From Candidatus Latescibacterota bacterium (GTDB taxonomy: Bacteria; Latescibacterota; UBA2968; GCA-2709665), in assembly GCA_965116875.1 (NCBI GenBank), contig OZ220733.1, positions 224,001 through 288,000 of the forward strand: a DNA stretch of 64,000 bases. The letters are read 5' to 3'. The translations under genes were made by a program, and so were the position numbers. Within the stretch, counting starts at the first letter, position 1, and every line of letters starts with the position of its first letter. Below are positions 29,932 to 50,352 of this stretch, piece by piece. The notes under the pieces are model-generated. The model had not been told where the DNA came from and made no database searches. It saw only the letters and a program-made list of their open reading frames with translations.

Positions 29932-29934
29932 TCC

Positions 29935-31140: not shown

Positions 31141-31545
31141 AGAAGGACACGGTTTTCATAGGTTCAATGTCAGTCAAAAACCATTGATCGAGAGCCGCGA
31201 ATGTGTCAAGTGGGAAGTTTCGCGACGATAATGTAACGGCGCATCGAACCCTTATTCGTCACTCTTCAGCAAACCAGAATCGGACTCTTTCAGAGATTTA
31301 AGTGCGAAATGAGAACCAAGAAGCCTGCAGTCCCAAGTACACCTGCGATATTTAGTCCGAATTGAGAAATAACACTTCCGACGTATCGAAAAGTTGATGG
31401 CAATCCCAATCAGCCGTCTCTTTGACCAGATTCGCAGTATTAGAAAAAAGTCCCCAAATACTCCAATAGTCGAGCATTCGAAGACAATGGGACGTTCAAC
31501 TTGCGGATTTATATGGTACTAATTCATCCTCCGGTCAGTCTTAAA

Positions 31546-32553
31546 TCATTCCGACGGTTCGTAATGATTGCATATTAACTCCAGGTCGTTCAATGCAGCC
31601 TCTTCGAGGTTTGCGATTTCCAAAAGACGTTTGTAAAGTTTTTCTAATGTCGGTATCAAGGCTCTTTTTTGGGCAATATAACAGAGGTTTCGGAATACAA
31701 GCCATTTTTGGGAAATCGTTTTGAATTGCCTCGCCAACTGACACAAACGACGATCTCGCAACGAGACCGCCCCGAATTCCAGAAATTTCGCGTGACCCTC
31801 ACGCTCGGGGATTACCATCTGAGTTTGTCGGAAGACCTGATCTAGCAGCTTACGTGCTTTCTCCTTCTTGAGCCATTTCCAGTGTTCCAAGTCGTTAGCG
31901 AGGGATCGCAGACCCGTCAACCCGAGACAGGTACCAGGTACGTGGAAACTGTCGCCACGCATAAATTGAATATTCTTATTAATCGATCGTTCAGTCTCGT
32001 CGGACGTCAGGTTCCAACGGGGTTCCGAACATTTGATTTCCAGCCACGTAAATTTCGGGATTTCATCTGATCCCCAGGCTTCCTTCAACCCGGAGATCGG
32101 CAGACTTCCTCGGAACAACTTAGTTGGCGATGGATCTACAATATGTACCATGTCCATTTCGTCGTCGTACCCAGCAAGAATAACGGCGTGAGACGAATGA
32201 TGGCCTAGTCCCGGATAGTAGTAACGTTCTAGATAATACGTGTCGGCTACCGCCGGTACCGGAACGCCCTCATCTATTCGCGACTTAGCGCATTTCCAGG
32301 CAGTTTCACCATCTCGTTCGTGATGCACTGTTACATGAATACCACATTGTCTTAATCTCGTCTGAAAATGAGTGATACGTGGACTAATTTTCACTTCTGC
32401 ACTGCCTTCCAGTTGGTATGAGAAATACCACTCGTCGTGCAATACGGTGGCAGTCGTGTACCCAAAAAACTGCAACATTACATCTAATGCCACATAATCA
32501 CAGGGATACGAATCGCAATCGCAGAAAGGAATTCCGGATATAAGTCGTCCCAT
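31546..32553 (-). CDS. BtrH N-terminal domain / DUF4872-like protein (papain-like fold, putative ACP-dependent acyltransferase)
   Basis: Early Cys (YPCDY), IDEGVPV...DTYYL, HSSHAVILAGYDDE..VHIVDP, LKEAW, GLTGLRSLA; helical C-terminus ending IANLEEAAL. Confidence 0.75.
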   Translation of the reverse strand: MGRLISGIPFCDCDSYPCDYVALDVMLQFFGYTTATVLHDEWYFSYQLEGSAEVKISPRITHFQTRLRQCGIHVTVHHERDGETAWKCAKSRIDEGVPVPAVADTYYLERYYYPGLGHHSSHAVILAGYDDEMDMVHIVDPSPTKLFRGSLPISGLKEAWGSDEIPKFTWLEIKCSEPRWNLTSDETERSINKNIQFMRGDSFHVPGTCLGLTGLRSLANDLEHWKWLKKEKARKLLDQVFRQTQMVIPEREGHAKFLEFGAVSLRDRRLCQLARQFKTISQKWLVFRNLCYIAQKRALIPTLEKLYKRLLEIANLEEAALNDLELICNHYEPSE

Positions 32554-33256
32554 GGCAATTCCTTAAGCTTGAAAAAAGTCGACATACGGCAGAGTCGGCG
32601 TATGCATTTATCGTCTTTTCAGTTTTACTATTGCGTAAACGACATTCTGCAATTCAGACGGCATGGCCGTTTCGTTAAGATCGTCTATTGACGATTCCGA
32701 ATCACACAATCCGTAGAAACACTAAGACCATTCATCGGTGCCCTACCCGAGTCTTGAATTAGGTAAAATCACCAGCCATGGTGCTAACCACGCTGCAATT
32801 TCAAAAAAAAATCCTCAAGTTGATCATCCATTGAACTTTCGATTTATGGCGAACATTCGTGAGGCGATTTGTCACCTCCTGCTTTTTTCTTAAGCGAGAT
32901 GTTCTCATTCTGCCGCCTCGACCGGCCGAGAAGACGAAACGCAGACACGATTAGTGAGTAATCACTTATTCTGCATTTATGACTCCAGCAAATCTGAAAT
33001 CTAGGGGATGGTACGAACGCACACCGTCGCGCTGGCAGAAATACGTCGTGGAAATCGCTCGGCGCTTCGGATATTTCCCGGCGAACAAAGTAGCCGTTTC
33101 GACCGAAACGGCGGGCGTCAGATAGGGCCTAAGCAGACGACACCATCTGTTTCGGTTGTCCCCGACCCGCGAAGCCCATAACTACCTATCCCGTTTTTTT
33201 CTCCGTTTTAAGAGTCTGGCAGTGCGACATCTACGCGACAGGGCTGGCGAGGCGGC

Positions 33257-33304
33257 CAGACAGGAATGTCCGCCCCACCTTCAGACCGGCATCCTCAGCA
33301 TAAC
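33257..33304 (+). repeat. REP-like direct repeat (copy 1)
   Basis: cagacaggaatgtccgccccaccttcagaccggcatcctcagcataac, near-identical to 34502-34549. Confidence 0.7.
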
Positions 33305-33325
33305 AGATCAGGTGCGCGGTTACTC

Positions 33326-34462
33326 TCAGGGTGTGAAAATGAAAATCTGATCCGTAGTCGACTCCCAATCTTGACTGTCATCCCTCCACTTGATTCCGCC
33401 GGCGACCATCACGCGGCCGTCTTCAAGGAGCGTGGCCGTAGCGAAAGACCTGCGCGGGCTGATGCTGTATCCGGTATTGGAAAATGCGTGCGTGACGGGA
33501 TCATACAGTACGATATCGCCGTTGTACGAGCGGATAAGAAACACGTTGCCGGACGGCAGCAGCAGGGCGGCACTGGGATCGATCGTTGAGACGCCGGCCG
33601 GTGAAAAGGTATTGGCTTCCGGGTCGTAGATCTCCGCCGTCTGCACGGATGGCCCTCTGCCGGAGGCGCCGCCGCCTATGATCAGGACCCTACCGTCCTC
33701 CAGTAGCACCGCCTTATGATTCCTGCGGTCGAACTGCAAGTTGCCTGCTTCCGAAAGGGCTTCGGTCGAGGGATCATAGATAAGATTCCGTCCCAGCAAT
33801 CCTGGGTCCCGTCCAACATTCTGTCCTCCAACGATCAACACCCTGCCGTCCTTCAACAAAGTGGCCGTATGGCCGATTCGGGAAGGATCCATCCTGAGCA
33901 AGGTGGAGAATGGGCCTGTCGTCGGGTCGAAGACACCCGCGTATAACGTGCTGGTCAAGAAGACCTTTCCGTCGAGAAGCAGAGTGGCAGTAAGAATCCC
34001 AATTCTCCGAGGCAAAACTGCCACAGGGTTGAATCTGCCGGAATGAGCATCGTACCTCTCAATGGGGAGATTGGGATTTCCGGGGATGATCAGGACCCGG
34101 CCGTCGGGAAGCAATATTCCGTGGTCCTCGCTGCGACTGGCAGTCAGGTCTCCCGTTGGCGTTGAGGTCCCGGTTTCAGGGTCGAATATTTCCGCACTGA
34201 TGAGACGCTTCGGCTGAGGAATGGGGGTATCCGGGGGAGGCGGCCCTGCGAGTACCAGCGGCAGTTCTTCGAGGCCGCCAGCGATCAGGACCTTGCCATC
34301 GTTCAGTAACGTCGCGGCATGCCAATACCGGGGTCGGGTCAGGTTTCCAACCTCGTGAAGACCCCTTTCAAGGGCCGGCGGCTCTGATGTGGTTACCGAA
34401 TCGCTTCCGCAAGCCCACAAGCTCGTGACGACGAACAGCGCGACCAAGATTCTGGTGGTCAT
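33326..34462 (-). CDS. Kelch-repeat beta-propeller lipoprotein
   Basis: Lipobox LWAC; repeated H-x-ATLL-x-DGRVLI-x-GG and AEIYDP motifs. Confidence 0.88.
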   Translation of the reverse strand: MTTRILVALFVVTSLWACGSDSVTTSEPPALERGLHEVGNLTRPRYWHAATLLNDGKVLIAGGLEELPLVLAGPPPPDTPIPQPKRLISAEIFDPETGTSTPTGDLTASRSEDHGILLPDGRVLIIPGNPNLPIERYDAHSGRFNPVAVLPRRIGILTATLLLDGKVFLTSTLYAGVFDPTTGPFSTLLRMDPSRIGHTATLLKDGRVLIVGGQNVGRDPGLLGRNLIYDPSTEALSEAGNLQFDRRNHKAVLLEDGRVLIIGGGASGRGPSVQTAEIYDPEANTFSPAGVSTIDPSAALLLPSGNVFLIRSYNGDIVLYDPVTHAFSNTGYSISPRRSFATATLLEDGRVMVAGGIKWRDDSQDWESTTDQIFIFTP

Positions 34463-34501
34463 TTTCTGTCTCCTTCCCGACCGAAGGATACACGATGTGG
34501 A

Positions 34502-34549
34502 CAGACAGGAATGTCCGCGCCACCTTCAGACCGGATTCCTCTGCATGAC
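34502..34549 (+). repeat. REP-like direct repeat (copy 2)
   Basis: cagacaggaatgtccgcgccaccttcagaccggattcctctgcatgac; a shorter core also occurs at 55895-55915. Confidence 0.7.
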
Positions 34550-34651
34550 GGTTCCGCGCAGGCGGCGGACATCCTGCTTCTCAGGTGTCGCCGCGTGTAA
34601 ATAGCGCAGAGATGATCCCATGCTGCAGTAGATCCTTCGTCGGCCTGGGGA

Positions 34652-34719
34652 CCCTTCGACGGGCTCGCTTCGACAGGCCACTTCGGCAAGCTCAGTGCAA
34701 GCAGCACAAGCAGGGCAAG
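34652..34719 (+). repeat. Nested mini-palindrome cluster
   Basis: cccttcgacgggctc[gcttcgacaggc[cacttcggcaagctcagtg]caagc agc]acaagc aggg. Confidence 0.6.
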
Positions 34720-35075
34720 TCCTCTGGATGACAGCCGGAAGCTTCGTGCTCGTGTAACCAGGTTGATCAAACCTTCCTAAACACCATCTCTTAAACGGAT
34801 TTCGCCAATGTTGTTAAAAATGAGGTGCAGGTTTGTAATCCGGTGTCTTCGGACAAATGGGAAACGGTCGCCTGAGATGGTTTAATTAAACTGGGAGAAA
34901 CTGTCACATGCCGCTGATCTTACGTTTGATCAAATCAAAAACGAACACGATTTACAGCGATTGGAAAAACAACTGATGACGAGACATCCTCCCAATATCA
35001 TCTTCATGGTATGTGAAGATCAATAGGGTGCGATTGTCTAAAATCCAACATTTCCGCTAGATGACAAAGCCCAAT

Positions 35076-35339
35076 TTAGCTGCTCGCCAATTTACCGGAC
35101 ACATAACGAACCATAGAATTCACAGAATCGAAGAGGTCGACGCGTAATTCTTCGTCATCCACCTCAATTCCAAACTCCTGTTCAAGAGCAAAGATGATTT
35201 CTAGTGCGGCAATCGAGTCAACTCCCACGCCCTCGAAAAGCAACTCATCATCGGCAATGTCGTTAGGGTCAATACTCAGGCGGAGTGACTGGACGATCGC
35301 AGATTTTACACGCTGTCCAATGAGCGTCAATTCTTCCAT
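35076..35339 (-). CDS. Acyl carrier protein (phosphopantetheine-binding)
   Basis: 87 aa, acidic; GVDSIAALEI (phosphopantetheine Ser) and LEQEFGIEV; overlaps the upstream gene. Confidence 0.9.
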   Translation of the reverse strand: MEELTLIGQRVKSAIVQSLRLSIDPNDIADDELLFEGVGVDSIAALEIIFALEQEFGIEVDDEELRVDLFDSVNSMVRYVSGKLASS

Positions 35340-37243
35340 CCGTTTTTCTTGTCCTCGGTAAAGTGATCGATTGCCACATCAACCGCCTTTTGAATACCCT
35401 CTGCCGACGAAATACATATGGCGGGTAATCCAAAAGACCGTTCCAATTGTCCCAACTTACAGGCTACTTCGGCTTGAGTCAGCGGTCGCGGTCTTATCGA
35501 CGTTCGACCATACCTAGCCTGCACTCCCTTTTCAAAGTCTGACGTGGCTAGCAACAATGTGGGCGCGTGACAAAATGCGCGAATGCCGTTGACCGTGTCC
35601 TGAATATAGTCTTCGGGATCGACACTGTTTACCACCAATATGCAAGCATCAGGCTTCACACCCATTAAAAAAGCAATGGTGGGCAGCGTCAAAGTATGCT
35701 TGTCGCATACGTCATAGGGAACCGTTCCGGATTGGGTACCGACCAAAATGAGATGAGGTCGTGTTTGGTAGCAAATCTCGCGCATCTTCGCATCGAGAAA
35801 CGGAATATAGTATTCAGTCGGAATTCGAACAGAGGGTGCGTAGCCCATTGGAAACCCATAATCCATGCCGAATAGCTCGGAATGATGTTCAGTCCCAATC
35901 TGTGCAATCCGAAACCCTAGTTCTAGCAATCTTCGCCGGAACGCTAATTGAAGGGTAAATTTACCCTGTTGCGAACTCGTACCTACTATAGCCAAAACCG
36001 GAACATCCACTTCGGGGAGCGATGAGCATCCATCGACTGTACGGCTCGCCTCTTCAAACGACAGCTCAGGATAATACAGTCTCAATCCTTTAGAAGCAGC
36101 GACTTCATGCAAGTCACCGTACTCCGCGTGAGGTAGTGCAAGTAGGCTGAACACGTTTACTTCATTATCGAGTGCGACCTGAACGCACTTTCTAAGGAAA
36201 TCGCTCTTACGGATTCGACTCAATTCATCAACGTAACCAAGAATCAGAGTGTCTGCATGCTCCAGACACGCCGACAGCCGGGATGTGATCCGGAGACCCT
36301 TATTACACAGGCCGATTGCTTCCCCTGCATCGCTGCCGACCAATCCCTTTCCGACAGGATCGGATATGCCCACGACCTGAAAGCCCAATAGGTCATTCGC
36401 ACGAACTACGGCGTGCATTTCCTTATTATACGGGTAGAGGCAGGCCTTGCGTATCCACGAGAAGCGATCCTCTGCAGCAGACGGGACCTTGATGGATGAC
36501 GCAGGGTTTGTTACGAGAGGAGGCGCCGTTTCGGATACTGCGTGGTTACTCAGAATCTCACGGATCTGTTGCAAGCAGGCACCAGGGTAAGCCTGCCGGA
36601 TTAGCGCGATCAGACCGGTTATATGTGGCGCAGCGAAACTGGTACCGCCCATCATTATTTCCTTCGGCTCCAACCAACACACCCGTTGGGGGTCGCCGCG
36701 CGCAATGCACTCAATCGGTCGACCGGCGCGATAATAGTAGTCGTACGGGCCAAGCAACGCACCCGAACCGACACCAATGACGTCGGCTAACAACGCAGGA
36801 TACGAGTCACGTCCCTCGTTATTTGCGGATGCTACCAAAAGAGTACCAACGCTGACTGCATTGCGACAGACGTTTGCCAACTCGTCACGATAAGCGATAT
36901 CCGTTGTTCCCAAGCTTAGATTTACAATGTCGATTCCGTGCGCAACTGTCCATTCGATGGCCGCTATGAGCAGTCGTGGTTCCGTCGACAAGGATTCGTC
37001 AAAAACTCGGATACTATAAATTGAGGCGTCCATCGCTTTCCGCCGGATAATACCTGCACAGGCCGTTCCGTGACCCACGCAGTCTTCAAAATCAGAACCA
37101 TAGATTAAATCCCCTGCTTTACCGACTGATATAGAAACCCCGTCTGTCAACGGACCAACCTTCGGGTGGTCCGGCACGATGCCACTATCTATAACTGCGA
37201 CGGCAACGCCGCGTCCGGTCAAGTTTGAAAACGGAAAACTCAT
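35327..37243 (-). CDS. S8 subtilisin-like peptidase fused to a DUF1611/TIGR04066-like P-loop domain
   Basis: Catalytic triad VAVIDSG / GHGTACAG / GTSFAAP. The C-half has LYPYNKE...GLVGSDAG and VPVLAIVGTSSQQGKFTLQL...GFRIAQIGTE. No signal peptide. Confidence 0.85.
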   Translation of the reverse strand: MSFPFSNLTGRGVAVAVIDSGIVPDHPKVGPLTDGVSISVGKAGDLIYGSDFEDCVGHGTACAGIIRRKAMDASIYSIRVFDESLSTEPRLLIAAIEWTVAHGIDIVNLSLGTTDIAYRDELANVCRNAVSVGTLLVASANNEGRDSYPALLADVIGVGSGALLGPYDYYYRAGRPIECIARGDPQRVCWLEPKEIMMGGTSFAAPHITGLIALIRQAYPGACLQQIREILSNHAVSETAPPLVTNPASSIKVPSAAEDRFSWIRKACLYPYNKEMHAVVRANDLLGFQVVGISDPVGKGLVGSDAGEAIGLCNKGLRITSRLSACLEHADTLILGYVDELSRIRKSDFLRKCVQVALDNEVNVFSLLALPHAEYGDLHEVAASKGLRLYYPELSFEEASRTVDGCSSLPEVDVPVLAIVGTSSQQGKFTLQLAFRRRLLELGFRIAQIGTEHHSELFGMDYGFPMGYAPSVRIPTEYYIPFLDAKMREICYQTRPHLILVGTQSGTVPYDVCDKHTLTLPTIAFLMGVKPDACILVVNSVDPEDYIQDTVNGIRAFCHAPTLLLATSDFEKGVQARYGRTSIRPRPLTQAEVACKLGQLERSFGLPAICISSAEGIQKAVDVAIDHFTEDKKNGWKN

Positions 37244-37354
37244 CGCACCTGTTCACGAAAAAGCTAAAGGAGGACGGCGATATTCTCACGAATATCGCAT
37301 TGCCAGGAAATCGGTTAGAGTTGTTTCCCCCAACTTCTCCTAAAAGCAGAAATA

Positions 37355-37846
37355 CTAACCTCCGTCATCGGTCTCGGTTGCCACCGGAAATCCCGCCTCG
37401 GCCCACAACGGCCATCCACCGGAAAGCACCCTGACGTTTGCATATGTGAATTCTCGTGCGAGGCGCCGCGCTACATCATAGCTACTCATACATGTAGCAT
37501 TTGCACAGTAGACGATAATATCGGTATCCGCCGGATAAGGCTCAAGCACACGATGCAATTTGGAAGTCGAATAGTGATATGACAGACGGACAGCACCCGG
37601 AATATGCCCACCATTAAATGCCTCAGCCGAGCGAGCATCTACAAATAACGCTGCTCCCCTGTCATATTGGTGCTTAGCTTCAACTAAATCCAATGTCCCA
37701 ATAGCCTGTTCTTCTAAAGTGCCGACATTTGCAAGAGGAAGTCCAGCCACCGTCCGCCGGGCATAAAACCACTCGGTCAATTGAAGGACGGCACAATACA
37801 TCACAATTAATATGAATACCAGTGAAACTATAACCCATCGCCACAC
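37355..37846 (-). CDS. Membrane-anchored rhodanese-like protein
   Basis: N-terminal TM; FVDARS..AF..GHIPGA, IIVYCANATC and VLSGGWPLW. Confidence 0.85.
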   Translation of the reverse strand: MWRWVIVSLVFILIVMYCAVLQLTEWFYARRTVAGLPLANVGTLEEQAIGTLDLVEAKHQYDRGAALFVDARSAEAFNGGHIPGAVRLSYHYSTSKLHRVLEPYPADTDIIVYCANATCMSSYDVARRLAREFTYANVRVLSGGWPLWAEAGFPVATETDDGG

Positions 37847-37877
37847 GAATTCGTATCCAATTCGGGACTCTTATTAA

Positions 37878-38067
37878 CCTTGATTCGAAAGTCCCCGGGG
37901 ACGTTAATTCGAATATGTGCTTGAAATAAAGGCGATTAGACGGCGGAAACCGAGGATACACCAGGTCACTGGACGTGAAGGGAAAAAACATCTTTCTTTA
38001 TGTCGACAACGCCCCGTTTCGGAGGGTTTTATCGCGTCGCCGCGTTGCTGTTTTTTTCGGATTGAGG
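37878..38067. mobile_element. 190-bp MITE with IS1380-like ends (copy 2)
   Basis: CCTTGATTC...ATTGAGG with TTAA direct repeats (37874-77, 38068-71); diverged homologue of 4022-4211. Confidence 0.8.
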
Positions 38068-39750
38068 TTAATTGCGTGCCGTTGAAAAAAAACTGTTTAA
38101 GAAACTTTGTTTCTGGAGCAACGCCTGAGGTTGACCCTGTTCAACTACGGTGCCGTTATCAATGCAGATCACTTCATCCACATTTCGGACGACGTTTAGT
38201 CTATGACTGATAACTAGGATTGTCTTTCCAGCAAATATCCGTCGGACATTTCGAAGAATCGTGTGTTCATTTTGGGGATCCAAAGCTGCGGTCGCTTCGT
38301 CCATGATTAGCAACTCCGCAGGATTCAACAAGGCTCTAGCAATTGCAAGCCGTTGTCGCTGCCCACCCGACATCTGTACTCCTTGCTCTCCTATAGTTTC
38401 ATGTTGATTCAGATCGTTCAGACCAACCATCTCCATGACGCGGTCGATTTCTGATGAGTTATACCGAGCCGATCCGTACCGGATATTCTCGCCGACGCTA
38501 TCGTGAAATAGGTGGACTCGTTGGCTAACCAAACTGATATTACGCCTCAAGTCCGACAGTTCGAATTCTCGCATTTGAACATTGTCAATGTTGATGCAAC
38601 CTCGATCGGGAAGATGAAGCCCACAAAGCAAATTGGCAATCGTCGACTTTCCACTTCCACTCGCACCTACCAAAGCATACGATTTCCCTTTTGCCATACT
38701 AAATTTCACTCCTCGAAGTACTGTCTGACTCTCAAAACTAAAATAAACATCTTGAAGGTCAATCTGCCTCCCGAAGGTAAACTGTTTTCGTCCAGCAAAA
38801 AAACCAACCTCCGAGGGAATCTGCATAAACTCCAACACGCGACGCATGGAAACCAACCCTCGAACGAGCCCAATGTACATATCGTGCAGGTTCCGGACTG
38901 GCTGGAAAAGACGTACCGAGTACTGTAGGAAGGCAACTAGAGCGCCAAGCGACATGACGTCTTGCATAACCTGATACGCTCCGAATCCCATAATGAAGAG
39001 GGGGGTTAACGCGGCCAACCCTCCTGACACACTATTCATTGAGGCATAGTACAGGACATTGCGCATGATTAATTCAATTAGATCATCCGACATAAAACGA
39101 AATCTATCGGTTTCTCGCCTCGAACTATTCGTAAGTTTAATTAATGAGACGTTTTTAAATCGTTCAATTACGTAGCTGGAGATGTCGGACCCCTTTTTCT
39201 GAATCTTTTCGATATTCCGTCTAATCCTAGGCTGAAAATAGGTCAGATTTAATACAAACAACGGGACGCCGATTACAGTCAGCAAAAAAAGGGAGGCATT
39301 TAGCCACATCAACAATACGATCAGCCCAATCAAAGTCAGGACACTGTGGATCGAGTGCAACGCGCTGGAAGTCAGCATCGACTCAATCACTGCCACATCA
39401 CTATTGAGCCGGTAGACCAAATCTCCTGTCTTTCGATTGTCAAGTGAGCTTATCGGTAAATCCAACAGCTTACGAAACATCCGCACTCGCATATCCCGAA
39501 CAATGCGATTACTGCACCACGCGTAGAGGTAGTTTGATGCGAAAGACAAGATCATATTAGTTAACATCAAACCGCAGAGAAGTCCTATCGCGACTAGAAG
39601 AGTGGTATATTGTTTGGCTGGAATTATGTCATCGATAATCGTCTTCGTAATGTACGGTGGAGCTAAGGAAACCGCAGTGGTAAGGACAAGACAGATCACA
39701 ACGATTAATCCCTTAAAGCGGTAGGGATTCAGGAATTTGGCAAATCGCAC
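38068..39750 (-). CDS. ABC exporter, fused permease/ATPase (no C39 domain)
   Basis: 6-TM domain, GASGSGKST, MSGGQRQR, LIMDEAT and ISHR. Confidence 0.93.
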   Translation of the reverse strand: MRFAKFLNPYRFKGLIVVICLVLTTAVSLAPPYITKTIIDDIIPAKQYTTLLVAIGLLCGLMLTNMILSFASNYLYAWCSNRIVRDMRVRMFRKLLDLPISSLDNRKTGDLVYRLNSDVAVIESMLTSSALHSIHSVLTLIGLIVLLMWLNASLFLLTVIGVPLFVLNLTYFQPRIRRNIEKIQKKGSDISSYVIERFKNVSLIKLTNSSRRETDRFRFMSDDLIELIMRNVLYYASMNSVSGGLAALTPLFIMGFGAYQVMQDVMSLGALVAFLQYSVRLFQPVRNLHDMYIGLVRGLVSMRRVLEFMQIPSEVGFFAGRKQFTFGRQIDLQDVYFSFESQTVLRGVKFSMAKGKSYALVGASGSGKSTIANLLCGLHLPDRGCINIDNVQMREFELSDLRRNISLVSQRVHLFHDSVGENIRYGSARYNSSEIDRVMEMVGLNDLNQHETIGEQGVQMSGGQRQRLAIARALLNPAELLIMDEATAALDPQNEHTILRNVRRIFAGKTILVISHRLNVVRNVDEVICIDNGTVVEQGQPQALLQKQSFLNSFFSTARN

Positions 39751-39789
39751 AATCGCGTTTATTGATGAGATGTGTGGCTCCGCGGAAAA

Positions 39790-40482
39790 CTAAAAGGGAT
39801 CACTGAGGACACCGCGCCCCTTGATTAACTCCAATAGAGACATACCGTGCATTTCTTTCAAGGGTGAATCAGCGAAACCCTCAACATTAATCTCAAAAGC
39901 AGGCATATGATTGTAAACAAGATCAACGAAGAACAAGGATGTGAATTGCTCCGCTTGGATTAGAGGAAGGTGGCATCGAATTATCCTGTTTTCTGGACTG
40001 ACAAGAAAAACCACAGGAGTTCGCACGAACAACCCATCGGAATCCTCTGGTTCTAGCGGAACACCTAACTGAAACGTCAACCTGAAGGCTCGCTTAAATT
40101 TAGTCAATTCTGATTGATCCCCATTTGAAATGGCGTAAATCGGCATCTCTAAGGAGTCCTTTAGGTTGTCGTGGATGTGTTGCAGCGCCCGTAATATTAG
40201 ATTGATGCAAGGTTGGCACGAATTCGGCGAAAACAAAAACACCAAGCCGGTCTTTGATCCTGAAAAGTCAGTACTTACCGTATCATTGCCAGTCGTGCGA
40301 ATTGACAATTTTGGAAATCCGCGACCGACTATCAGATCCTGCCGGTAGGTATTGACCACAAACGTGCGGTAAAACCGTAGATCGGTGAGATGTAATTTGA
40401 ATAACCAGGCGAGGGAGACGACTAGACCAATTAGGAAAAGCAGATTCGATACTACCAATAATCTCGTTATCCGCATAATCAT
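39790..40482 (-). CDS. Membrane-anchored thioredoxin-fold (redoxin-like) protein
   Basis: N-terminal TM; LVFLFSPNSCQPC (CxxC) and RTPVVFLV (cis-Pro motif). Confidence 0.7.
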   Translation of the reverse strand: MIMRITRLLVVSNLLFLIGLVVSLAWLFKLHLTDLRFYRTFVVNTYRQDLIVGRGFPKLSIRTTGNDTVSTDFSGSKTGLVFLFSPNSCQPCINLILRALQHIHDNLKDSLEMPIYAISNGDQSELTKFKRAFRLTFQLGVPLEPEDSDGLFVRTPVVFLVSPENRIIRCHLPLIQAEQFTSLFFVDLVYNHMPAFEINVEGFADSPLKEMHGMSLLELIKGRGVLSDPF

Positions 40483-40819
40483 ACCGAAACTTTACAACAA
40501 CCGTCGTTGCAGTCCATAGAGGTTATTGTAGTTTCTCGAATGAATTCTGTACGGTTCAAAACCACAACAAATCGACGGCCAACGGGTATTTGCCCTACGC
40601 TTCGGCGGCCGTCGCACACAGATGTTCTTGCGGGCACTGGTCATCTTCCGAACGCAGGCGCGCATCCTAAGATCCGGACTCACCCTCGACAAGACCACGC
40701 CAAACCACCTACGCAGCGCATTCGACAGACTCGAAACTTTGATCGACCAACATTGCGATCATGCCAAACTCGCTGCTTGAAGCTTGACTCAAACACCACA
40801 AAAACCGCCGACTAAGCAG

Positions 40820-41003
40820 GCTAGGGCTGCAGAAAGAATGCGCCAACCCAAGCTATTGCCACTGGCTCTCTGTGCTCTTTGCGCTGGATGAAGCCTTCCC
40901 CAAACACGACATCAACCCCGCTGGCCGCGTAAGATCGAAGCGATTTCCCAGCCGCACACTGGCGACAACCAATCCCATAGAATCCACGTTCACCACCGCA
41001 GCA
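40820..41003 (+). pseudogene. IS256 (mutator-family) transposase relic
   Basis: Frameshifted, deleted fragments APTQAIATGSL, ALDEAFP../RHQPRW and DFPAAHW/TTNPIESTFTT match the IS256 C-terminal pattern FPAEHW..LRTTNPIESTF. Confidence 0.6.
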
Positions 41004-41074
41004 GAGGGATTCTTCGATCCAATGAACAGCACCAATATCATACGTTTAACGTACTTACCGAAGTTAACGAAAGA

Positions 41075-41100
41075 CCGAAATACGGATCCGATCCACCATT
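41075..41100. repeat. Downstream arm of the inverted repeat flanking the precursor gene
   Basis: ccgaaatacggatccgatccaccatt, complementary to 41368-41396 apart from 3 single-nt bulges. Confidence 0.8.
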
Positions 41101-41120
41101 TCAGTCAACGAGAGTAATAC

Positions 41121-41342
41121 CTAAATGTTATACCATTCCGACCAATAGGTATCTCCCGAATTACAAAGGGCAACTTCGATCTCATTCGTGGCATCGCAAG
41201 AATAGTGGTCTCTCCGCTGCAACTGACCATTGTGGCACCTTTTTTCGAATTTGTCGTTGAACCATTGATATCCATCGTACCATTCGTACGCGTATATCAA
41301 TGTATCCTGTCGACGGTTCCGTGGTTTTCGTAGCAAGTTCAT
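41121..41342 (-). CDS. Putative RiPP precursor peptide (73 aa)
   Basis: GGGAGG RBS; MNLLRKPRNRRQDTLIYAY-EWYDGYQWFND...C...C...C...YWSEWYNI. Basic leader ending in AY; located between the rSAM/SPASM gene and the exporter/protease genes. Confidence 0.75.
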   Translation of the reverse strand: MNLLRKPRNRRQDTLIYAYEWYDGYQWFNDKFEKRCHNGQLQRRDHYSCDATNEIEVALCNSGDTYWSEWYNI

Positions 41343-41367
41343 GTTGCCTCCCTTTTGAGAGTTTGAG

Positions 41368-41396
41368 AATTGGTGGATCGGAATCCGTAGTTTCGG
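41368..41396. repeat. Upstream arm of the inverted repeat flanking the precursor gene
   Basis: aattggtggatcggaatccgtagtttcgg; pairs with 41075-41100. Confidence 0.8.
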
Positions 41397-41412
41397 CAAA
41401 TCGCAAAGCAAA

Positions 41413-41601
41413 CCTTGATTCCTCATTTTTCGAGGACTTTTATTTGAATATGTGTCAGTTAAAGAGGTGATTAGACTGCTGACTACCAGGATGCATCAGG
41501 ACACTGTACGTGAACGGAAGAAATGTCCTTCCTTAAGACCATTTCGGCACCATTCGGAGAGTTCCGTCGCGTCGCCGCGTTGCGACTTTTTCGGATCGAG
41601 G
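41413..41601. mobile_element. ~190-bp MITE with IS1380-like ends (copy 3)
   Basis: Reverse-complement homologue of 4022-4211 over its whole length; flanks CAAA / CTAA. Confidence 0.82.
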
Positions 41602-41651
41602 CTAATGAATGAGATAGATGCATCGATCGGATAAATCGACACGATTTACAG

Positions 41652-42875
41652 CTAGTTATTTGCACCAAAGTCAAGCGCATAGACAGCCACATTGCCATTG
41701 GAATTTTCCGACTCTGCTGCCGACGGCTCACTCCATACATACAACTGATCCCGCGAAGATGCTATACTATTCCACGGGACCGATATAACTTCGGATTCGA
41801 GGTGCTCCTTTGCTGACCTACTAAAGTCATAGACTCCGACGGCCTCTTCTGTGTCGAGGTCGTAAATCGACCAGTTGGTAATACTTGCGACGGTCGTGTC
41901 CTCGGTCGTGCCAGGGTTTATGTGCGAAACCATCAAAAATCGACCATGGACGATTGTCATGCTACTTACAGTTGTCATTTTCAATCCTCTCATATCTTCA
42001 CGACTCCCTTGTTCAATTCCATGATACCTTGTCGGCAACGGTACATATCCTTTCGGACGACGACCAAATCGCCTGATGGTTATCCCAGTCTCGGCGTCGA
42101 TTTCTCTAACCATGTAGTCGTTTGGTCCCAGGAAATACAGCCTATTCCGTACCACGCTGTAGCATAGATGCGCAAAGGCTTTCATGCGATATGAGATAAA
42201 CCTCTGGGAATTGGTAGAAAGAGCCACGCGATACACAACATCCCATCCGGACGGTTCAAGGCGTCGCAATTCCATTATCTTCATCGGGTTTACCATCAGT
42301 ACGAAGACCTCGCCCAATCTACCCGTTAACACCCTGGTGGCATGTAGTAACCGTGTCGTGTCCACATGTTTCCCGGCTCTGTCATATCGGACAATCTGGC
42401 CATAAGTTGAATCCAACAGGTACACCATACCCTGCGGGTCTATTGACATATAACGAGCACTGCCATATTCGCCTGGTCCGCGACCCTGACGACCAAACGA
42501 CTGGATATAGCGTCCGTCCGAAAGGTCAAATTCATGTGCTCTTTCACCAATCCGGTCGGTAAGCAGTAGAGTGTTATCCCGTGTCACACCTATCCAGTTT
42601 GCCTCACCAATCCCAGGTGTTTTTTCGTTAAAGTCCAGACTAAATTGGCGCTTCAAATCAAGACCGATTTCGCCGATATATTCCAACTTCGTTTCGTGAA
42701 TGGACTCTTCGTTGGCCTCGTGAGGCGAAGACTTCGAATACGTCTCCTTCGACTGGTCCGGCACTTGTGCAACCGCCCGGCCGTTTCCGGAAACAAGAAC
42801 GACCGTAAGTAAAAAAACAAAAAGACTGAACATTCTTTCCGGCCAATGACGTCCAGCTAACGTGCTCTTCTTCAT
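41652..42875 (-). CDS. Exported 6-bladed beta-propeller (NHL-like) protein
   Basis: Signal peptide; FDLSDGRYIQSFGRQGRGPGEY, IDPQGMVYLLD and YDRAGK. Confidence 0.8.
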   Translation of the reverse strand: MKKSTLAGRHWPERMFSLFVFLLTVVLVSGNGRAVAQVPDQSKETYSKSSPHEANEESIHETKLEYIGEIGLDLKRQFSLDFNEKTPGIGEANWIGVTRDNTLLLTDRIGERAHEFDLSDGRYIQSFGRQGRGPGEYGSARYMSIDPQGMVYLLDSTYGQIVRYDRAGKHVDTTRLLHATRVLTGRLGEVFVLMVNPMKIMELRRLEPSGWDVVYRVALSTNSQRFISYRMKAFAHLCYSVVRNRLYFLGPNDYMVREIDAETGITIRRFGRRPKGYVPLPTRYHGIEQGSREDMRGLKMTTVSSMTIVHGRFLMVSHINPGTTEDTTVASITNWSIYDLDTEEAVGVYDFSRSAKEHLESEVISVPWNSIASSRDQLYVWSEPSAAESENSNGNVAVYALDFGANN

Positions 42876-42989
42876 CGTGAACTCCTTTCGAATTTGTGCT
42901 GTGTCATTGTGTAATGGTTACGTGCGTAACCATATTATAATACAATGACTTGGGTACGGAAACCACCTCTTTTGTGAATTATTCAGGCT

Positions 42990-43290
42990 TAGTATGCATG
43001 ACGTCGCCGATACCCCAGCGACACAATTGGATTCTCACGTTCACCTTTTCTCCGACGACGGCGGCCTTCCACCTTCAAAACACCGTTCGCCTCACGCATT
43101 ACCTCTCTCGAGGCCTGCTAAACCTTCACTCGCGTTACGGACTGTATACTTGCAAGTTGCCATGCGACCTATACACCGGAGCTTAGGACAACTCGATGCT
43201 TTCCTGCCTGCTTTACTTGCAACCGACGGCGGCAACATTGGGCTGGTGCGACTCTCTCCCACAAGAGTTCCGCACCTTTTCACGGCGTAT
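42990..43290 (-). mobile_element. Probable degenerate group II intron 5' fragment (domain I)
   Basis: The minus strand begins ATACGCCGTGAAAAGGTGCGG (cf. GTGCGCCGTGAAAAGGCGC) and contains CCGTAACGCGAGTGAA..GGCCTCGAGAGAGG. No RT ORF or domain V was seen. Confidence 0.5.
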
Positions 43291-43361
43291 GGTTGTCGAA
43301 TTAACGCTAATCACACAATAATGTACGAGGAGGCTCGGTTGATCGAGTTTTATAAGTAGCT

Positions 43362-44819
43362 TCACTCGGCATCACCTTGATTAACCAATCTTAGATTGTA
43401 CCTCTCCTGCAACAGTTTCTTGTCCGTGTTTTGAATTTCTATACACATTTCCATGGCGAGTTCATAGCTATAACGGATCTGTTCGCACGAGACAGGGTTC
43501 GGATTTATCGGGTCCCCAGTTGCAGTCCGGGCATCATATATACACCCGCCCCCACACAGGTTTCTTGCCCAGCAACGCCGACAGTCGGAACGGGAATCGA
43601 CATGGAACGAATCTTTGAATCCATCCTGGACATTTTCGTCAAGACCAGAGAAGACGTCGCCCATCTTAAACTCCGGCCGGTCGGCAAGACTTGAACAAAA
43701 ATAGATGTCGCCTTCTACATCCACGGCCAGAAATGTCCTCCCGCCTTGACAGCCATAACATGATTTCGCGCGAGTCATTAATCGTTCGATAAAACGGTCG
43801 AAAAATCCTCTCTCGTGCGACCCTTCCAGAATGTTCGCCGTCTCATGCCGGCTTAAACCGCAAAGTCTGCGCTTTATTTCAGGCAGATGCTCCTCGCGCA
43901 GCGCATAAGGTTCTTCAGGTGCAGCAACGACAGGAGCCACTCTAACACGACATGCGCCAAGTTGCCTCAAATCATCAGCAATGGACTCCCTGTCCAGATT
44001 GTACGAAGTCATTGTTGCGCGTACCGATACCTTATCCGGTGACTCTTTCGTCAATTTCAACAGGTTCTCGGCCACCACATTGTACGTTTCACTGCCATCT
44101 CGAAACTTCCGCAGTCGGTTTTGGTCTCTCGGGTTGCCGTCGACACTAACCTGAATGTGAATTTCCTCATCAATTAGAAACTGTAAGATTTCATCCGAAA
44201 TTAGAGTGCCATTAGTTGCGATACCAAAAGAGACCTGAACCCCAACCCGATGGGCATACTCACGGGCAAAGGGAATGATATCTCGAATTAACTCGAAGTT
44301 CAGGAGCGGTTCCCCACCGAAAAAGTCTATCTGACACCTGCCGAACGAGCGAGCTTCACTCAGTGCCCATCGTACAGCCTGCCTTGCTACATGCGGCGTC
44401 ATAAATCCCGGTACCCTTCCGTAGTCGCCGCCATGTGCGAAGCAATAGGTACATTTGACGTTACAGGCGTGCGAAACGTGTAACGTGATGTGAAATTGAC
44501 TCTCACGGGGCTCGGACTCTGGCAATCCGCAGATCCCTTGATCCGGCCCCTGTGTATCTGAATGAAGTTTCAGCGAGGCATCGTATATGAGCTGGGCTTC
44601 GGCAAGGACCTCAACTGCCTTTAACACGTCCTCGCCAGGAAATTCATCGGCCAATTCAAAAACGACTTCCTGGTCCGTTAGTCCGTCGCAAATCTTGAGA
44701 ATCGACTCATAGAGCGGATTCAGTTCAAAGAACAGTCCCGTGTAAACCTGAAACAAAAACGTACGTTTCGACTGGGATGTTCTGAAAAGATGCATTTCAG
44801 ACTTTGCGATTCGTAGCAC
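43362..44819 (-). CDS. Radical SAM/SPASM peptide maturase with N-terminal RRE (CteB/PapB/QhpD-like)
   Basis: CNVKCTYC, FFGGEPLLN, IATNGT, VSVDG; SPASM Cys set CQGG...IYFC...CRRCWARNLCGGGC...SC; PqqD-like N-terminus. The start is uncertain (44795, 44819 or 44969). Confidence 0.9.
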   Translation of the reverse strand: MLRIAKSEMHLFRTSQSKRTFLFQVYTGLFFELNPLYESILKICDGLTDQEVVFELADEFPGEDVLKAVEVLAEAQLIYDASLKLHSDTQGPDQGICGLPESEPRESQFHITLHVSHACNVKCTYCFAHGGDYGRVPGFMTPHVARQAVRWALSEARSFGRCQIDFFGGEPLLNFELIRDIIPFAREYAHRVGVQVSFGIATNGTLISDEILQFLIDEEIHIQVSVDGNPRDQNRLRKFRDGSETYNVVAENLLKLTKESPDKVSVRATMTSYNLDRESIADDLRQLGACRVRVAPVVAAPEEPYALREEHLPEIKRRLCGLSRHETANILEGSHERGFFDRFIERLMTRAKSCYGCQGGRTFLAVDVEGDIYFCSSLADRPEFKMGDVFSGLDENVQDGFKDSFHVDSRSDCRRCWARNLCGGGCIYDARTATGDPINPNPVSCEQIRYSYELAMEMCIEIQNTDKKLLQERYNLRLVNQGDAE

Positions 44820-45183
44820 TTCCTCTGCCCCCAATACCCGACACACAAACAACCGATATACTATTGGGCTGTATGCTTTTCCCGTGGAGTGGGTCCATTC
44901 TGTGATTTTTTGATTGTGACCGCGTTTGTCATTGGTGGCGGCAGAATGGGGAACCACGGCCATTCGCACAACGTCGCTTCAATAGGAGTCGTCGATCCAA
45001 AGCATCCGCAAATTTTCCCCCTATTGTCTGAAACACCGTTGACCGGGAACAGTGAAGGTTTGGGATTATTCAGTGCCATTATCGTCCTCCTTGCCCGTTC
45101 AGCTTTGCGCGTCTCTATACTACAATGGAGATCAAACACGTGGCGCCAAATCCATCATGCAATTAATGCTATGAATGGGATGC

Positions 45184-45199
45184 TGCAAACCACGTACCC
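45184..45199 (-). promoter_or_regulatory. Candidate sigma54 (-24/-12) promoter facing the rSAM gene
   Basis: Minus strand GGGTACG-TGGT-TTGCA gives GG-N10-GC, with 2 mismatches to TGGCACG-N4-TTGCW; AT-rich DNA lies upstream. Confidence 0.5.
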
Positions 45200-45465
45200 G
45201 AAAAACAAAAAACGCTTGTGTGAGACCACAAGCGAAATAATTACAACGATTTATTTATTTGTTTTTTCTTTTCTATTCACGACGAGAGTTTGTTCTTAAA
45301 TTGTATTCATTGTATACAGAACTCTTCCTATGTGAAAGATATGCGTCAATTCAAACGAACAAAACCTTAAAATACAATACTTTAAATTCTGTCCAACGCC
45401 GTCTACACTTCTCTAGGATCGATGCGCAAGCTATCTACGCTGATGGCGAGGCTTTATCGTGCAAC

Positions 45466-48400: not shown

Positions 48401-50352
48401 TGTGAGAACCGATAACGTCCACGAGGGTCCTGCATATCTCTCAAAAGGCCCAGGCTGACGTTTGCATCCACCGTCTCCAATAACTCCAGTTCATCCTCGC
48501 ACCAGACGTCTGAAATCAGCTCGAACGAAAACGCGCCGCGAAAGATTGATGCATATTCCAGCGCCTGCCTTTGGGCCGAACGAAGTCGTCCCAGGCGCAA
48601 CTTGATGGCCTGCATAATGCCCGACGGCATTGGCCATTCCGTCTCCTTCGGCCACCTCCAAATTCCTGTTGAATCCTTCCATATCAAGCCGTCGGCAATT
48701 GCTCCCCGAACCAATTCTACGACAAACAGTGGATTCCCCCCAGTTTCCTGGAAAACCCTACGATTCTCTTCCTCAGGTACAGCCTGTTCTCCAAGCAGGG
48801 ACGCAGCCAGATTCCCAGTTTCGTCCATATCGAGAGGCTGGAGACGAAAATGTTCAGCTCGAGTTCCAATTGGCCCATCTGTCAGGTCGTCGATTCCAGG
48901 GGGTAGCGGATCTTCGTCCACCTTGCGGCAAGCGAGCCCGAAGACGAGAGGTACGGGATCCGGATCTCTCCTCACAAAGTCCAGGAACCGCAGGGTCAGG
49001 TCGTCGGCCCACTGCACGTCTTCAATGCATACAAGGGTCGGCGTTTCCCTGCTCAGATCGACGAGAAGTTCCGACAAGGTCTCCATCGCCGGGTACGGAT
49101 CCGGCTGATCGGCGGGCGCCGGCCGTTCAATTTGCGTAAGAACTCGCTTGACGGATTCTTCCAGGTCTGGACCCCGAACGCCGGTCTGATCGGCCAGGTC
49201 TCGCAGGATTTCCAGGAATGGCCCAAAGGCTTGGCCCCCGCTCTCATAGCAACGTCCTGATTGTACGCGCATTCCGTTGACGCGGGCGTCGGCCTGGAAT
49301 TCTTCAAGAACTTGGGTCTTCCCGATGCCAGCACTGCCGCTCACGAGAATGATGCGCCCTATACCCTCGCGAGTATCCTGCAGGATCTTCCGTAGAGCCT
49401 TCATCTCACGTTCTCGACCCTGGAACTGGGGTTGGAAAACGGGAACGTCTGGGGCACCCAAGACAGGCCGCATTGAAACGGTAGCTTCGTCACCGTCTCT
49501 ATAGAATCCGCTTTCCTCGTTATTCGTCAAATCATACAGCAAGCTCCCTACCGAACTGTAGCGGTCAATGGGTTCCTTCTCGAGAAGCTTCATTACTGAC
49601 TCTTCGATCCCCGAGAAATCTTCGCCGGTTACAAGGTGCGGAGGGCGCGGCAATTCTTTCAGATGCTGAAGCAATACCGTTGCTGGATCTTCTCCCGTGA
49701 ATGGTGGTTTCCCGGTAAGAATCTCGTAAAGAATGACTCCCAATGAATAAAGGTCGGATCGCTGGTCAACTGCCTTTCCCCGGATCTGTTCGGGGGACAT
49801 GTACTCCAAGGTCCCGGTAGCCGCTCCGGGAGCCGAGAGGCGTTCCTCCCTTACATCTCTAAATCGCGCCAGACCCAGGTCCAGAATCGTAACCTCGGGC
49901 TTACCCTCAATCTCTGAAATCATAATATTTGAGGGCTTCAGGTCTCTGTGCAACACACCCTGTTCATGGATGTATCCCAACCCTTCTACAGTCTGGCGGA
50001 TAAAGGGAACGAGCCACGCGGATTTTAGCTTTTCACGATCATCTACTCCTGAAATCAGGTCGGACAAGGGACGACCATGGACAAAGTCCATGGAAAAATA
50101 CGGACTCCCGTCGTGCGCGCCCCAGCTGTGTGAAATAACAACTCGAGGATGTCGGATTCGAGACAAGATATTAAACTCCCTCAGAAATCGCCTTTGTGCC
50201 CCGTCCCCCGTGAGATCTAATATCTTAAGCGCTGTAATGGAATTTTTCCGTACGTCCCGCGCACGATAGACGGTACCTAAACCTCCATTTCCAACGGTAT
50301 TGAGGATCTCGTAACACCCGTCGACAACCGTGCCAGCCTTTAATTCGGACAT
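45466..50352 (-). CDS. Ser/Thr kinase - AAA ATPase - TPR - GAF - sigma54-dependent Fis-family activator
   Basis: Kinase [25 protein letters not shown]; GSAGIGKT; GAF; b[38 protein letters not shown]; C-terminal HTH. Confidence 0.92.

Follow-up and report, generated by a model that had tools for sequence, protein, structure and literature searches.

In this study, we have explored a stretch of 64,000 nucleotides from a Candidatus Latescibacterota bacterium (GenBank assembly GCA_965116875.1, contig OZ220733.1, positions 224,001 to 288,000; hereafter the window), which holds a cluster of genes for peptides made on the ribosome and modified after translation (RiPPs). All long open reading frames (ORFs) between 26.8 and 50.4 kb lie on the minus strand. 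Module 1 (window 43362-50352) is made up of a regulator gene, a sigma-54 promoter, a precursor that we call peptide A and a radical S-adenosylmethionine (rSAM) enzyme with a SPASM domain. Module 2 (window 31546-42875) is made up of a beta-propeller, a second precursor (peptide B), a redoxin, an ATP-binding cassette (ABC) exporter, a rhodanese, an S8-DUF1611 fusion protein, an acyl carrier protein (ACP) and a BtrH-like protein. From the genes present, their domain folds and conserved motifs, and their co-occurrence in other genomes, we conclude, with a probability of roughly two in three (0.68), that these are two separate adjacent RiPP maturation modules, set head to tail on the minus strand, rather than a single pathway centred on the rSAM enzyme. 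An initial annotation of 31546-45199 had proposed such a single pathway on the basis of nine genes. All nine are real, co-oriented minus-strand ORFs, each confirmed by the family scans, and its end coordinate, 45199, is the first base of the sigma-54-type promoter; a Kelch lipoprotein gene (33326-34462) and a 72-aa ORF (44861-45079), that of peptide A, had been overlooked. Protein families were scanned with Pfam and NCBIfam over the ORFs of 18.8-55.8 kb, and the window proteins were mapped onto two sets of loci, 20 in related genomes and 61 in named records. The DUF1611 half of the fusion is found in 60 of these 61 loci, and the 46 of them with at least 8 kb upstream and at least 3 kb downstream form our counting set. 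Occurrence in genomes was assessed in a phylum sample of 168 genomes and a related-genome set of 41. Module 1 has the following features:

45466..50352, minus strand: regulator of 1628 aa, with Ser/Thr kinase, STAND (AAA_16), TPR, GAF, sigma-54 AAA+ and HTH_8 domains (Pfam)
45213..45234, minus strand: terminator-like hairpin and T-run after the regulator gene, 8-pair stem with 5 GC pairs, tail TTTTTTGTTT
45184..45199, minus strand: sigma-54-type promoter GGGTACGTGGTTTGCA, GG-N10-GC, score 13/15
44861..45079, minus strand: peptide A, putative precursor of 72 aa, AAGGAGG ribosome-binding site followed by ATG
43362..44795, minus strand: maturase of 477 aa with an N-terminal domain like a RiPP recognition element (RRE), a radical SAM domain and a SPASM domain; ORF 43362-44969, likely ATG at 44795

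The argument for two modules starts from the conserved neighbour of the rSAM gene. In 10/10 loci the stretch from the promoter to the rSAM gene contains the peptide A ORF, preceded by a strong ribosome-binding site, and a comparison of coordinates across the 41 genomes places it 50-250 nt upstream of every full-length rSAM orthologue (29/29). One N-terminal rSAM fragment is likewise preceded by peptide A, and four fragmentary rSAM hits (G038, G017, G031 and G033:C175, the last of which begins at a contig end) have no adjacent peptide-A match. In an alignment of 10 sequences, the leader reads L-x-x-[IV]-N-G-x-x-D-x-x-G-x-I and the core C38-x-W-P-x-F-P-x-L-P-P-P, with N14, G21, C38, P47 and P49 invariant; in a second genus the core becomes C...P-P-L-P-F-P-D-D-D-D-W-D. 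A profile of peptide A gave 20 matches among 1.84 billion representative proteins, one of them the window's own, with 12 at E <= 1e-10 and all 47-121 aa long except two long outliers, and the peptide occurs in 20 of the 168 phylum-sample genomes, confined to two genera. With a conserved leader, a variable core and a tailoring enzyme beside it, peptide A has the marks of a RiPP precursor. Neither peptide A nor peptide B matches a Pfam or NCBIfam family (at E <= 1), and the peptide A family is new to both databases. Judged by this neighbourhood, the rSAM enzyme seems to serve peptide A and not the 73-residue peptide B. The initial annotation had expected rSAM homologues to adjoin peptides similar to peptide B; what adjoins the 29 full-length orthologues is peptide A instead, and the proposed crosslinking of peptide B by this enzyme is left unsupported. 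The obvious peptide near the rSAM gene was here not the conserved partner of the enzyme, which would be a 72-aa ORF in the apparent 5' leader.

The rSAM enzyme matches Radical_SAM at 2.4e-15 in Pfam, and its best NCBIfam families are nif11 rSAM, SCIFF, PapB and QhpD (E 1e-68 to 5e-73), none of whose curated cutoffs is reached (246.4 bits for 518.7, 245.4 for 425, 237.4 for 340 and 229.1 for 453, respectively). The Pfam SPASM match taken alone is below gathering (17.6 vs 21.5), and no Pfam RRE or PqqD match was found in the N-terminus. The motif C111-x3-C115-x2-C118 (CX3CX2C) and the further C-terminal cysteines C346, C349, C367, C405, C408, C414, C418 and C437 are invariant in 10 orthologues; orthologues are 52-67% identical and belong to two genera. 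A profile of the enzyme matches PDB entry 5wgg, which we take to be CteB, at 1.4e-74 over positions 12-449. Complex prediction supports the binding of peptide A by the rSAM enzyme, with a score of 0.73 against 0.13 for the best control, and passes a mark that 58 of 80 solved complexes, but also 2 of 110 mismatched pairs, attain, counts that hold only roughly for our self-made alignments. The partner has a pLDDT (predicted local distance difference test) of 52 or more, and at least 80% of the contacts are common to the runs. The prediction sets leader residues 8-17 on rSAM residues 19-25, and residues 35-40, C38 included, on rSAM residues 337-351. The likeness to CteB/SCIFF and PapB, which are of the ranthipeptide type, extends over the full length of the enzyme, N-terminal domain included (SCIFF 1.1e-72, PapB 2.4e-70), and takes in the CX3CX2C motif, the SPASM cysteines and a precursor encoded directly upstream. 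The differences are a precursor with a Pro-rich core and a single invariant Cys in place of six Cys or C-x3-D repeats, the link of the module to a giant sigma-54 activator and scores below every equivalog cutoff. PapB follows a C-x3-D rule; this motif is missing from the conserved core of peptide A, which therefore does not imply logic of the PapB type. Read from the family likeness of the enzyme only, the product of peptide A would most likely carry a thioether formed from the invariant C38.

The regulator matches Pkinase (3.3e-47), AAA_16 (1.9e-27), GAF (5.8e-16), Sigma54_activat (8.9e-68) and HTH_8 (4.4e-10), and adjoins the rSAM orthologue in 10/10 loci examined, including a paralogous copy of module 1 in the same genome, whose regulator and rSAM are 65% and 70% identical to those of the window. 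Only 5 sites score at least 13 on both strands of the whole window, and in 9/9 loci the rSAM start has an equivalent sigma-54 site 290-404 nt upstream; the sigma-54 control put forward by the initial annotation holds for the rSAM gene. Ahead of loci with module 2 only, no consistent sigma-54 site was found, a score of at least 13 at a plausible place being reached only in L045 and L049 among 10 loci. Module 1, on the strength of these comparisons, appears to be a unit. The hairpin after the regulator gene and the one at the end of module 2 are both weak evidence for termination, with 19 sites in the region against 15.2 +/- 4.6 in shuffles and thus no excess. Among other module-1 loci, L033, L034 and L043 carry a second, distant rSAM-SPASM gene (25-26% identity) directly after the first, and in L037 and L041 a 302-aa protein instead follows the rSAM and looks methyltransferase-like from its sequence only.

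Module 2 follows downstream on the same strand, with these features:

41652..42875, minus strand: six-bladed beta-propeller of 407 aa with an N-terminal signal sequence (DUF5128 8.1e-10)
41121..41342, minus strand: peptide B, putative precursor of 73 aa, good ribosome-binding site
39790..40482, minus strand: redoxin of 230 aa, thioredoxin fold with CQPC motif, predicted to be membrane-anchored (AhpC-TSA 7.6e-5, below gathering)
38068..39750, minus strand: half-size ABC exporter, membrane domain and ATPase, no C39 peptidase domain (Pfam/NCBIfam)
37355..37846, minus strand: rhodanese of 163 aa, predicted to be membrane-anchored (Rhodanese 1.3e-17)
35327..37243, minus strand: fusion protein of 638 aa, S8 protease at about 1-240 and DUF1611/TIGR04066-like two-domain P-loop part at about 256-638 (Pfam/NCBIfam)
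35076..35339, minus strand: ACP of 87 aa with a G-V-D-S phosphopantetheine site (PP-binding 8e-12)
33326..34462, minus strand: Kelch-repeat lipoprotein of 378 aa, between the ACP and BtrH-like genes (Kelch_4 1.5e-16, Kelch_6 4.8e-16)
31546..32553, minus strand: BtrH-like papain-fold protein of 335 aa, BtrH_N and DUF4872 (2.5e-12 and 2.7e-9)
31450..31485, minus strand: terminator-like hairpin at the end of module 2, 14-pair stem, tail TTTTTTCTAA

Peptide B also resembles a RiPP precursor, with a conserved leader, a variable core and tailoring enzymes beside it. In 13 family members the leader reads M-x-x-L-x-K-K-x-x-x-R-R-...-A-Y19, conserved up to the A-Y at its end that had been pointed out before. 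Y19, W27, C49 and C60 are invariant, and the rest of the core, with 2-5 Cys, is hypervariable (mean column identity 33%). As a single query peptide B found only itself; the family emerged via synteny and then by profile, which detects it in 15 of the 168 phylum-sample genomes, in three families, and the 5.8-billion protein collection holds 15 unnamed members. In family f4 it is present in 9 of 76 genomes, and peptide A in none (0/76). The propeller gene neighbours the peptide-B gene in every peptide-B locus, and in L088 the pair is duplicated. L045, L046, L049, L050, L056, L057 and L088 repeat the gene order of propeller, peptide B, redoxin, ABC, rhodanese, fusion, ACP and BtrH-like protein, and L047, L048 and L051 keep it partly; none of these ten 20-kb loci contains an rSAM gene. 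In L030, L036, L038, L040 and L042, which belong to a second family of the same taxonomic order, the genes are reshuffled to ACP, fusion, redoxin, peptide and propeller, with ABC, rhodanese and MauE after them. Across the 46 loci of the counting set, the ACP is present in 41, an ABC gene in 43, the propeller in 12, the redoxin in 11 (with the propeller in 8) and the rhodanese in 12, these being of the propeller/redoxin type. The redoxin retains its CxPC motif in L013 and L030, and the exporter matches ABC_membrane (4.6e-47), ABC_tran (2.4e-34) and an MsbA-like family (3.9e-111, below cutoff). A homologue of the window rSAM is found in 2 of the 46 loci, the near-identical sister genome and a Bacteroidetes metagenome-assembled genome (MAG) at 23% identity, so that the co-occurrence of ACP and BtrH genes with the rSAM, on which the initial annotation had staked its case, is not seen. 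Module 2 appears from these distributions to be a unit without rSAM.

The fusion protein of module 2 matches Peptidase_S8 (2.3e-28), PF07755 (1.1e-9, 38.4 bits vs a gathering value of 25), QhpE (4.7e-42) and TIGR04066 (1e-29). D19, H58 and S202 of the protease and the P-loop G421-T430, with the motif G-T-S-x-x-Q-G-K-F-T, are invariant in 24/24 fusions. A model of the DUF1611 half (pLDDT 85.2, predicted template modelling score 0.86) was matched by Foldseek to 2g0t (2.2e-14), to the N-acetyltransferase DgcN-25328 (7xrj, 3.8e-13) and to 2obn (4.6e-12), with weaker matches to P-loop ligases and CoA-binding Rossmann domains. Family scans and fold thus bear out the kinship with TIGR04066 and DUF1611 suggested earlier, and the ACP and BtrH assignments have fared equally well. 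Matches to the fusion at E <= 1e-90 occur in 24 of the 41 related genomes, and at least 540 fusion proteins at E <= 1e-10 were found among 8000 candidates scored in the 5.8-billion collection; among the matches listed, the domains are PF00082 and PF07755, and the names given are 'S8 family serine peptidase' or 'uncharacterized NAD-dependent epimerase/dehydratase family protein'. In nine loci an in-match TGA or TAG raised the question of selenocysteine or pyrrolysine; these are real stops, 5-8 residues before the end of the alignment. The ACP has an invariant Ser in its G-x-[D/N]-S site (20/20), as expected of a genuine carrier protein, and in 37 of the 46 loci its gene is no more than 1.5 kb downstream or 3.5 kb upstream of that of the fusion. 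In the BtrH-like protein both domains are above gathering (PF14399, 47.6 vs 29.7 bits; PF16169, 37.5 vs 28), and C18, H119, H122, H137 and D140 are invariant in 10/10 cluster-linked homologues; which His and Asp would complete the catalytic triad with the Cys we can only infer. Its gene follows the ACP in 9 of the 46 loci. In 24 further loci there is a 340-aa protein, c4, bringing loci with either to 33 of 46. Protein c4 has no Pfam or NCBIfam match, and comparison with the BtrH-like protein gave a probability of 11% with a single sequence and of 82% profile to profile (E 1.1e-5, 228 columns); c4 may be a distant BtrH-like relative. Fusion cassettes are strongly expanded in genus g6 (L024, L070 of G029, and others), with up to nine matching places in G039, and ahead of one fusion gene of this genus the GNAT, CPBP-protease and TPR genes form tandem triplet repeats.

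Several observations weigh against a separation into two modules. The modules are adjacent and co-oriented, and the 487-bp gap between the rSAM and propeller genes has no predicted terminator or promoter, so module 2 may be read from the sigma-54 promoter of module 1 (nor does the interval 42880-43360 hold a convincing small ORF). Module 1 is also found upstream of sets of redoxin, Cys-rich peptide and DUF5128 propeller genes in two other lineages, one comprising the paralogue in G000, the genome of the window, together with G001, and the other G035 with G027. In L032 (G000:C1:2020000-2039999), at a distance of about 1.76 Mb, there is a paralogue of module 1 that has its own peptide A; after it come a 224-aa protein, a membrane AhpC/TSA redoxin, a 76-aa Cys-rich signal-bearing peptide, a DUF5128 propeller lipoprotein and a 354-aa protein; by their motifs, and not by scan, the 224-aa protein looks FMN-binding-like and the 354-aa protein ApbE-like. 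G001 has the same redoxin/peptide/propeller set 8 kb downstream, and G035 and G027 have a peptide-B-type cassette at 3-13 kb from module 1. Such neighbourhoods hint at a link between the modules. Furthermore, position +4 is Q, N or D for 3/3 cysteines of peptide B in the window, compared with 7/33 in 11 rSAM-less members, a post hoc pattern with a chance of about 0.03 in which one of the three sites is a family trait, and which is a weak hint only. A complex of CteB with a peptide may have been solved, in which case likeness to it may account for the result obtained with peptide A. As regards the carrier protein, no ACP-loading enzyme is evident, and BtrH-like genes are absent from the nearest non-sister locus (G010, L013) and from g6-type loci.

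That the modules abut in one orientation, and that no terminator is predicted from the rSAM gene to the propeller gene, is also what a single pathway would lead one to expect, in which the rSAM enzyme crosslinks the cysteines of peptide B ahead of leader cleavage, ACP acylation and export or, in a weaker form, acts on both peptides. Such a pathway would also agree with the retention of the C-x3-[Q/N/D] cysteines in the sister genome despite nearby substitutions, with the position of module 1 upstream of propeller/redoxin/peptide sets in what are then three lineages, with S8-TIGR04066 fusions beside other rSAM-SPASM enzymes in Firmicutes and Bacteroidota MAGs (L095, L101, L104), and with the clustering of clostridial TIGR04066/04068/04069 genes in the excerpted part of PMC10731318. 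We nevertheless hold it to be very unlikely. The rSAM orthologues have a precursor of their own, with a conserved core that lacks the C-x3-D motif; peptide-B systems are found without rSAM in at least 10 loci examined and in family f4; the ACP and BtrH genes track the S8-DUF1611 fusion and not the rSAM; and adjacency is not conserved within genus g6. The modules lie apart in G010, G028, G039 and G025, on different contigs in the first two, and because genomes of this group hold two or three copies of module 1 and several cassettes, some adjacency is expected by chance. That the two modules, although separate, have some functional link is doubtful; shared regulation would be its most likely form.

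BtrH and AsbE share a Cys-His-Asp triad with CtaG and pass carrier-bound donors to free acceptors, according to the excerpted text of PMC12865890. The window protein is like them in its BtrH_N and DUF4872 domains, its conserved Cys, His and Asp and the dedicated carrier protein nearby (BtrI in the case of BtrH); it is unlike BtrH and AsbE in that the likely acceptor would be a ribosomal peptide and not an aminoglycoside or a siderophore. In butirosin synthesis BtrJ is an ATP-grasp loader, and no such loader is present here. In the table excerpted from PMC3949708 the BtrH-like gene is darE, the label 'DarH' coming from the NCBIfam library only. The DUF1611 half resembles DgcN/DUF1611 structures (7xrj, 2g0t, 2obn) in its two-domain fold, with template modelling (TM) scores of 0.60-0.72 by target, and in its P-loop motif; it departs from DgcN in its low identity (15-17%), in its fusion to a protease and in its pairing with an ACP rather than, presumably, acetyl-CoA. 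The substrate of DgcN is D-glutamate. In the excerpt of PMC10845958, only a pathway name is given for DgcN.

These likenesses could also be read otherwise, with a P-loop domain that is a ligase, a kinase or the loader of the ACP, and an ACP that carries the peptide itself or a building block of some other product, so that no acyl group reaches the peptide. The C-terminal half of the model is indeed similar to SIMIBI-type ATP-dependent enzymes such as dethiobiotin synthetase 3of5 (TM 0.60 by target) and to Mur ligases, its Walker-A-like motif is invariant, and no other candidate for loading the ACP is conserved in the 46 loci. The sole fold match with a named activity is, however, an N-acetyltransferase (7xrj), and protease and DUF1611 domain are joined in the at least 540 proteins found, from which it can be argued that both act on the same peptide. 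We regard this absence of acylation as quite unlikely, and prefer acylation of peptide B from the carrier protein.

A further reading of module 2 concerns the fate of its product. Patterned on quinohemoprotein amine dehydrogenase (QhpC/QhpB, QhpE, QhpF) and on methylamine dehydrogenase (a small Cys-rich subunit with MauD/MauE), it holds that peptide B becomes a small crosslinked subunit or ligand kept by the periplasmic propeller, and not a secreted antibiotic-like peptide. In the qhp operon, QhpC loses its leader of 28 residues to QhpE while still in the cytoplasm, and the ABC transporter QhpF then exports it (excerpt of PMC7876137). Module 2 would share with it cytoplasmic leader removal by an S8 protease, export by an ABC protein that has no peptidase domain, as in QhpF, and a meeting with a propeller protein in the periplasm; QhpE is the best match of the S8 domain (143.8 bits vs a cutoff of 165) and QhpD is among the best of the rSAM, both below cutoff; the rSAM of the window pairs with another peptide. 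The constant neighbourhood of peptide and propeller genes with their paired duplication, the one Trp and two Cys invariant in the core, the MauE-like and redoxin genes that accompany related loci and the second set in the same genome, in L032, where a Sec-signal Cys-rich peptide, a DUF5128 propeller, a redoxin and the FMN-binding-like and ApbE-like proteins are joined, all agree with a bound subunit. Against this, the dihaem protein QhpA and the flavoprotein QhpG have no counterpart domain in the scanned ORFs, and neither a MauG-like haem protein nor a cytochrome was found in the cluster by family scans. In addition, the hypervariable core fits diversifying secreted peptides better than a catalytic subunit, and CPBP and Yip1/YknW-like genes in sister cassettes resemble immunity genes. 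We consider a bound subunit unlikely. Other cassettes are varied in content, with genes for an AraC-type response regulator, a membrane-fusion protein, a CPBP protease, TPR, GNAT, Yip1/YknW-like, ResA-like and MauE/DoxX proteins and a glycosyltransferase.

The clostridial system of TIGR04065, TIGR04066, TIGR04068 (CcpM) and TIGR04069 shares with module 2 a TIGR04066-like domain beside a small carrier, an exporter, a subtilisin-type protease and a RiPP context (table 3 of PMC10731318, in excerpt). In an Erysipelotrichaceae MAG (L101) we found, in this order, an rSAM of the Cys-rich-peptide type, an ACP-like protein, an S8-TIGR04066 fusion and two ABC genes, an arrangement like the clostridial one; the fusion, being present in Firmicutes, is not confined to Latescibacterota. 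The window differs from the clostridial system in scores well short of the cutoffs (TIGR04066, 103.7 bits vs 200 over residues 266-558; TIGR04068, 150.2 vs 500), in the fusion of its protease to the TIGR04066-like domain, in an ACP that is an ordinary PP-binding protein, and in the added BtrH-like transacylase, redoxin, rhodanese and propeller; moreover, most Latescibacterota loci have no rSAM. Neither the ACP nor peptide B matched TIGR04069 or TIGR04065 at E <= 0.01. Of the families named in the initial annotation, BtrH_N and DUF1611 were therefore above gathering, TIGR04066, TIGR04068 and SPASM fell below cutoff, and Pfam RRE, TIGR04065 and TIGR04069 gave no match. No curated family cutoff is reached by the rSAM clade, by the fusion or by either peptide family. 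The modules, both uncharacterised, are related to known kinds, module 1 to thioether-forming rSAM RiPPs and module 2 to the bioinformatically defined TIGR04066 system, and the part that could prove new is the carrier-protein chemistry. For the TIGR04066-type family we found in print annotation-level mentions only, with no product or chemistry; a literature search for DUF1611 returned only unrelated papers, a search of main texts (supplements not covered) gave no paper on the products of either module, and the excerpts of PMC11832590 and PMC10352776, consulted on Latescibacter and RiPPs, have nothing on these systems.

Lipidated RiPPs such as goadvionins, lipolanthines and selidamides bear an acyl group on a ribosomal peptide, in some cases derived from an ACP. 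They owe it to GNAT enzymes or to polyketide or fatty acid synthases, unlike module 2, which offers a DgcN-like P-loop domain and a papain-fold protein of the BtrH type as candidates; no genes for acyl-chain synthesis are present in the cluster of the window.

Based on these comparisons, we infer a course of events whose chemistry is a prediction at every step, as are the place of cleavage, the nature of the acyl group, the way redoxin and rhodanese sit in the membrane and what the propeller does. In module 1, the giant kinase/STAND/GAF activator would drive the sigma-54 promoter ahead of peptide A and the rSAM gene, the RRE-like N-terminal domain of the enzyme would bind the I-N-G-x-x-D-x-x-G leader, and C38 would be crosslinked, probably as a thioether. 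In module 2, the QhpE-like S8 domain would cut peptide B at the conserved A-Y and so free it of its leader of some 19 residues; an amine of the peptide would then receive a carrier-borne acyl or aminoacyl group through the joint action of DgcN-like domain, ACP and BtrH-like transacylase, and the ABC exporter would carry the peptide to the periplasm. There, the membrane-anchored CxxC redoxin and the rhodanese may oxidise C49 and C60, and the secreted propeller may bind the product. It is possible, though short of probable, that fusion, ACP and BtrH-like protein constitute a new RiPP route of the type 'cut leader, then acylate from carrier protein', common to the at least 540 fusions of Latescibacterota, Gemmatimonadota, Bacteroidota and Firmicutes, clostridial TIGR04066 systems included, and that peptide A, with its single-Cys Pro-rich core and an rSAM under a kinase-STAND sigma-54 activator, founds a second new RiPP family. 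If this were true, there would be a testable function in peptide maturation for the DUF1611-type domain and another for the TIGR04066/ACP pair, which databases hold without a known reaction, and carrier-protein-dependent acylation by papain-fold and P-loop enzymes would be added to RiPP chemistry. As the Latescibacterota hosts are uncultured and known from MAGs only, the products could be reached only by heterologous expression.

Some features of the region stand apart from these questions. The Kelch lipoprotein is weakly similar to the radical copper oxidase GlxA (4.3e-18, far below cutoff) and is found only in the window and the sister genome G009 among the loci compared, and it looks like a lineage-specific insertion. 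The 640-bp gap between the peptide-B and redoxin genes (40483-41120) holds no convincing minus-strand gene; a plus-strand ORF within it (40507-40815) is common to the sister genome, whose gap is about 1.1 kb. G+C content is 0.46-0.52 over 30-46 kb (30000-46000) compared with about 0.60 at 1-14 kb and 56-64 kb, and a DDE transposase gene is located at 18818-20197; the low-G+C clusters may be part of an acquired island. Beyond the terminator-like hairpin that closes module 2, a membrane-fusion protein and two AcrB-type RND transporters are encoded on the same strand (23417-31140), and the same pump genes are found downstream of the clusters of G009 and G010.

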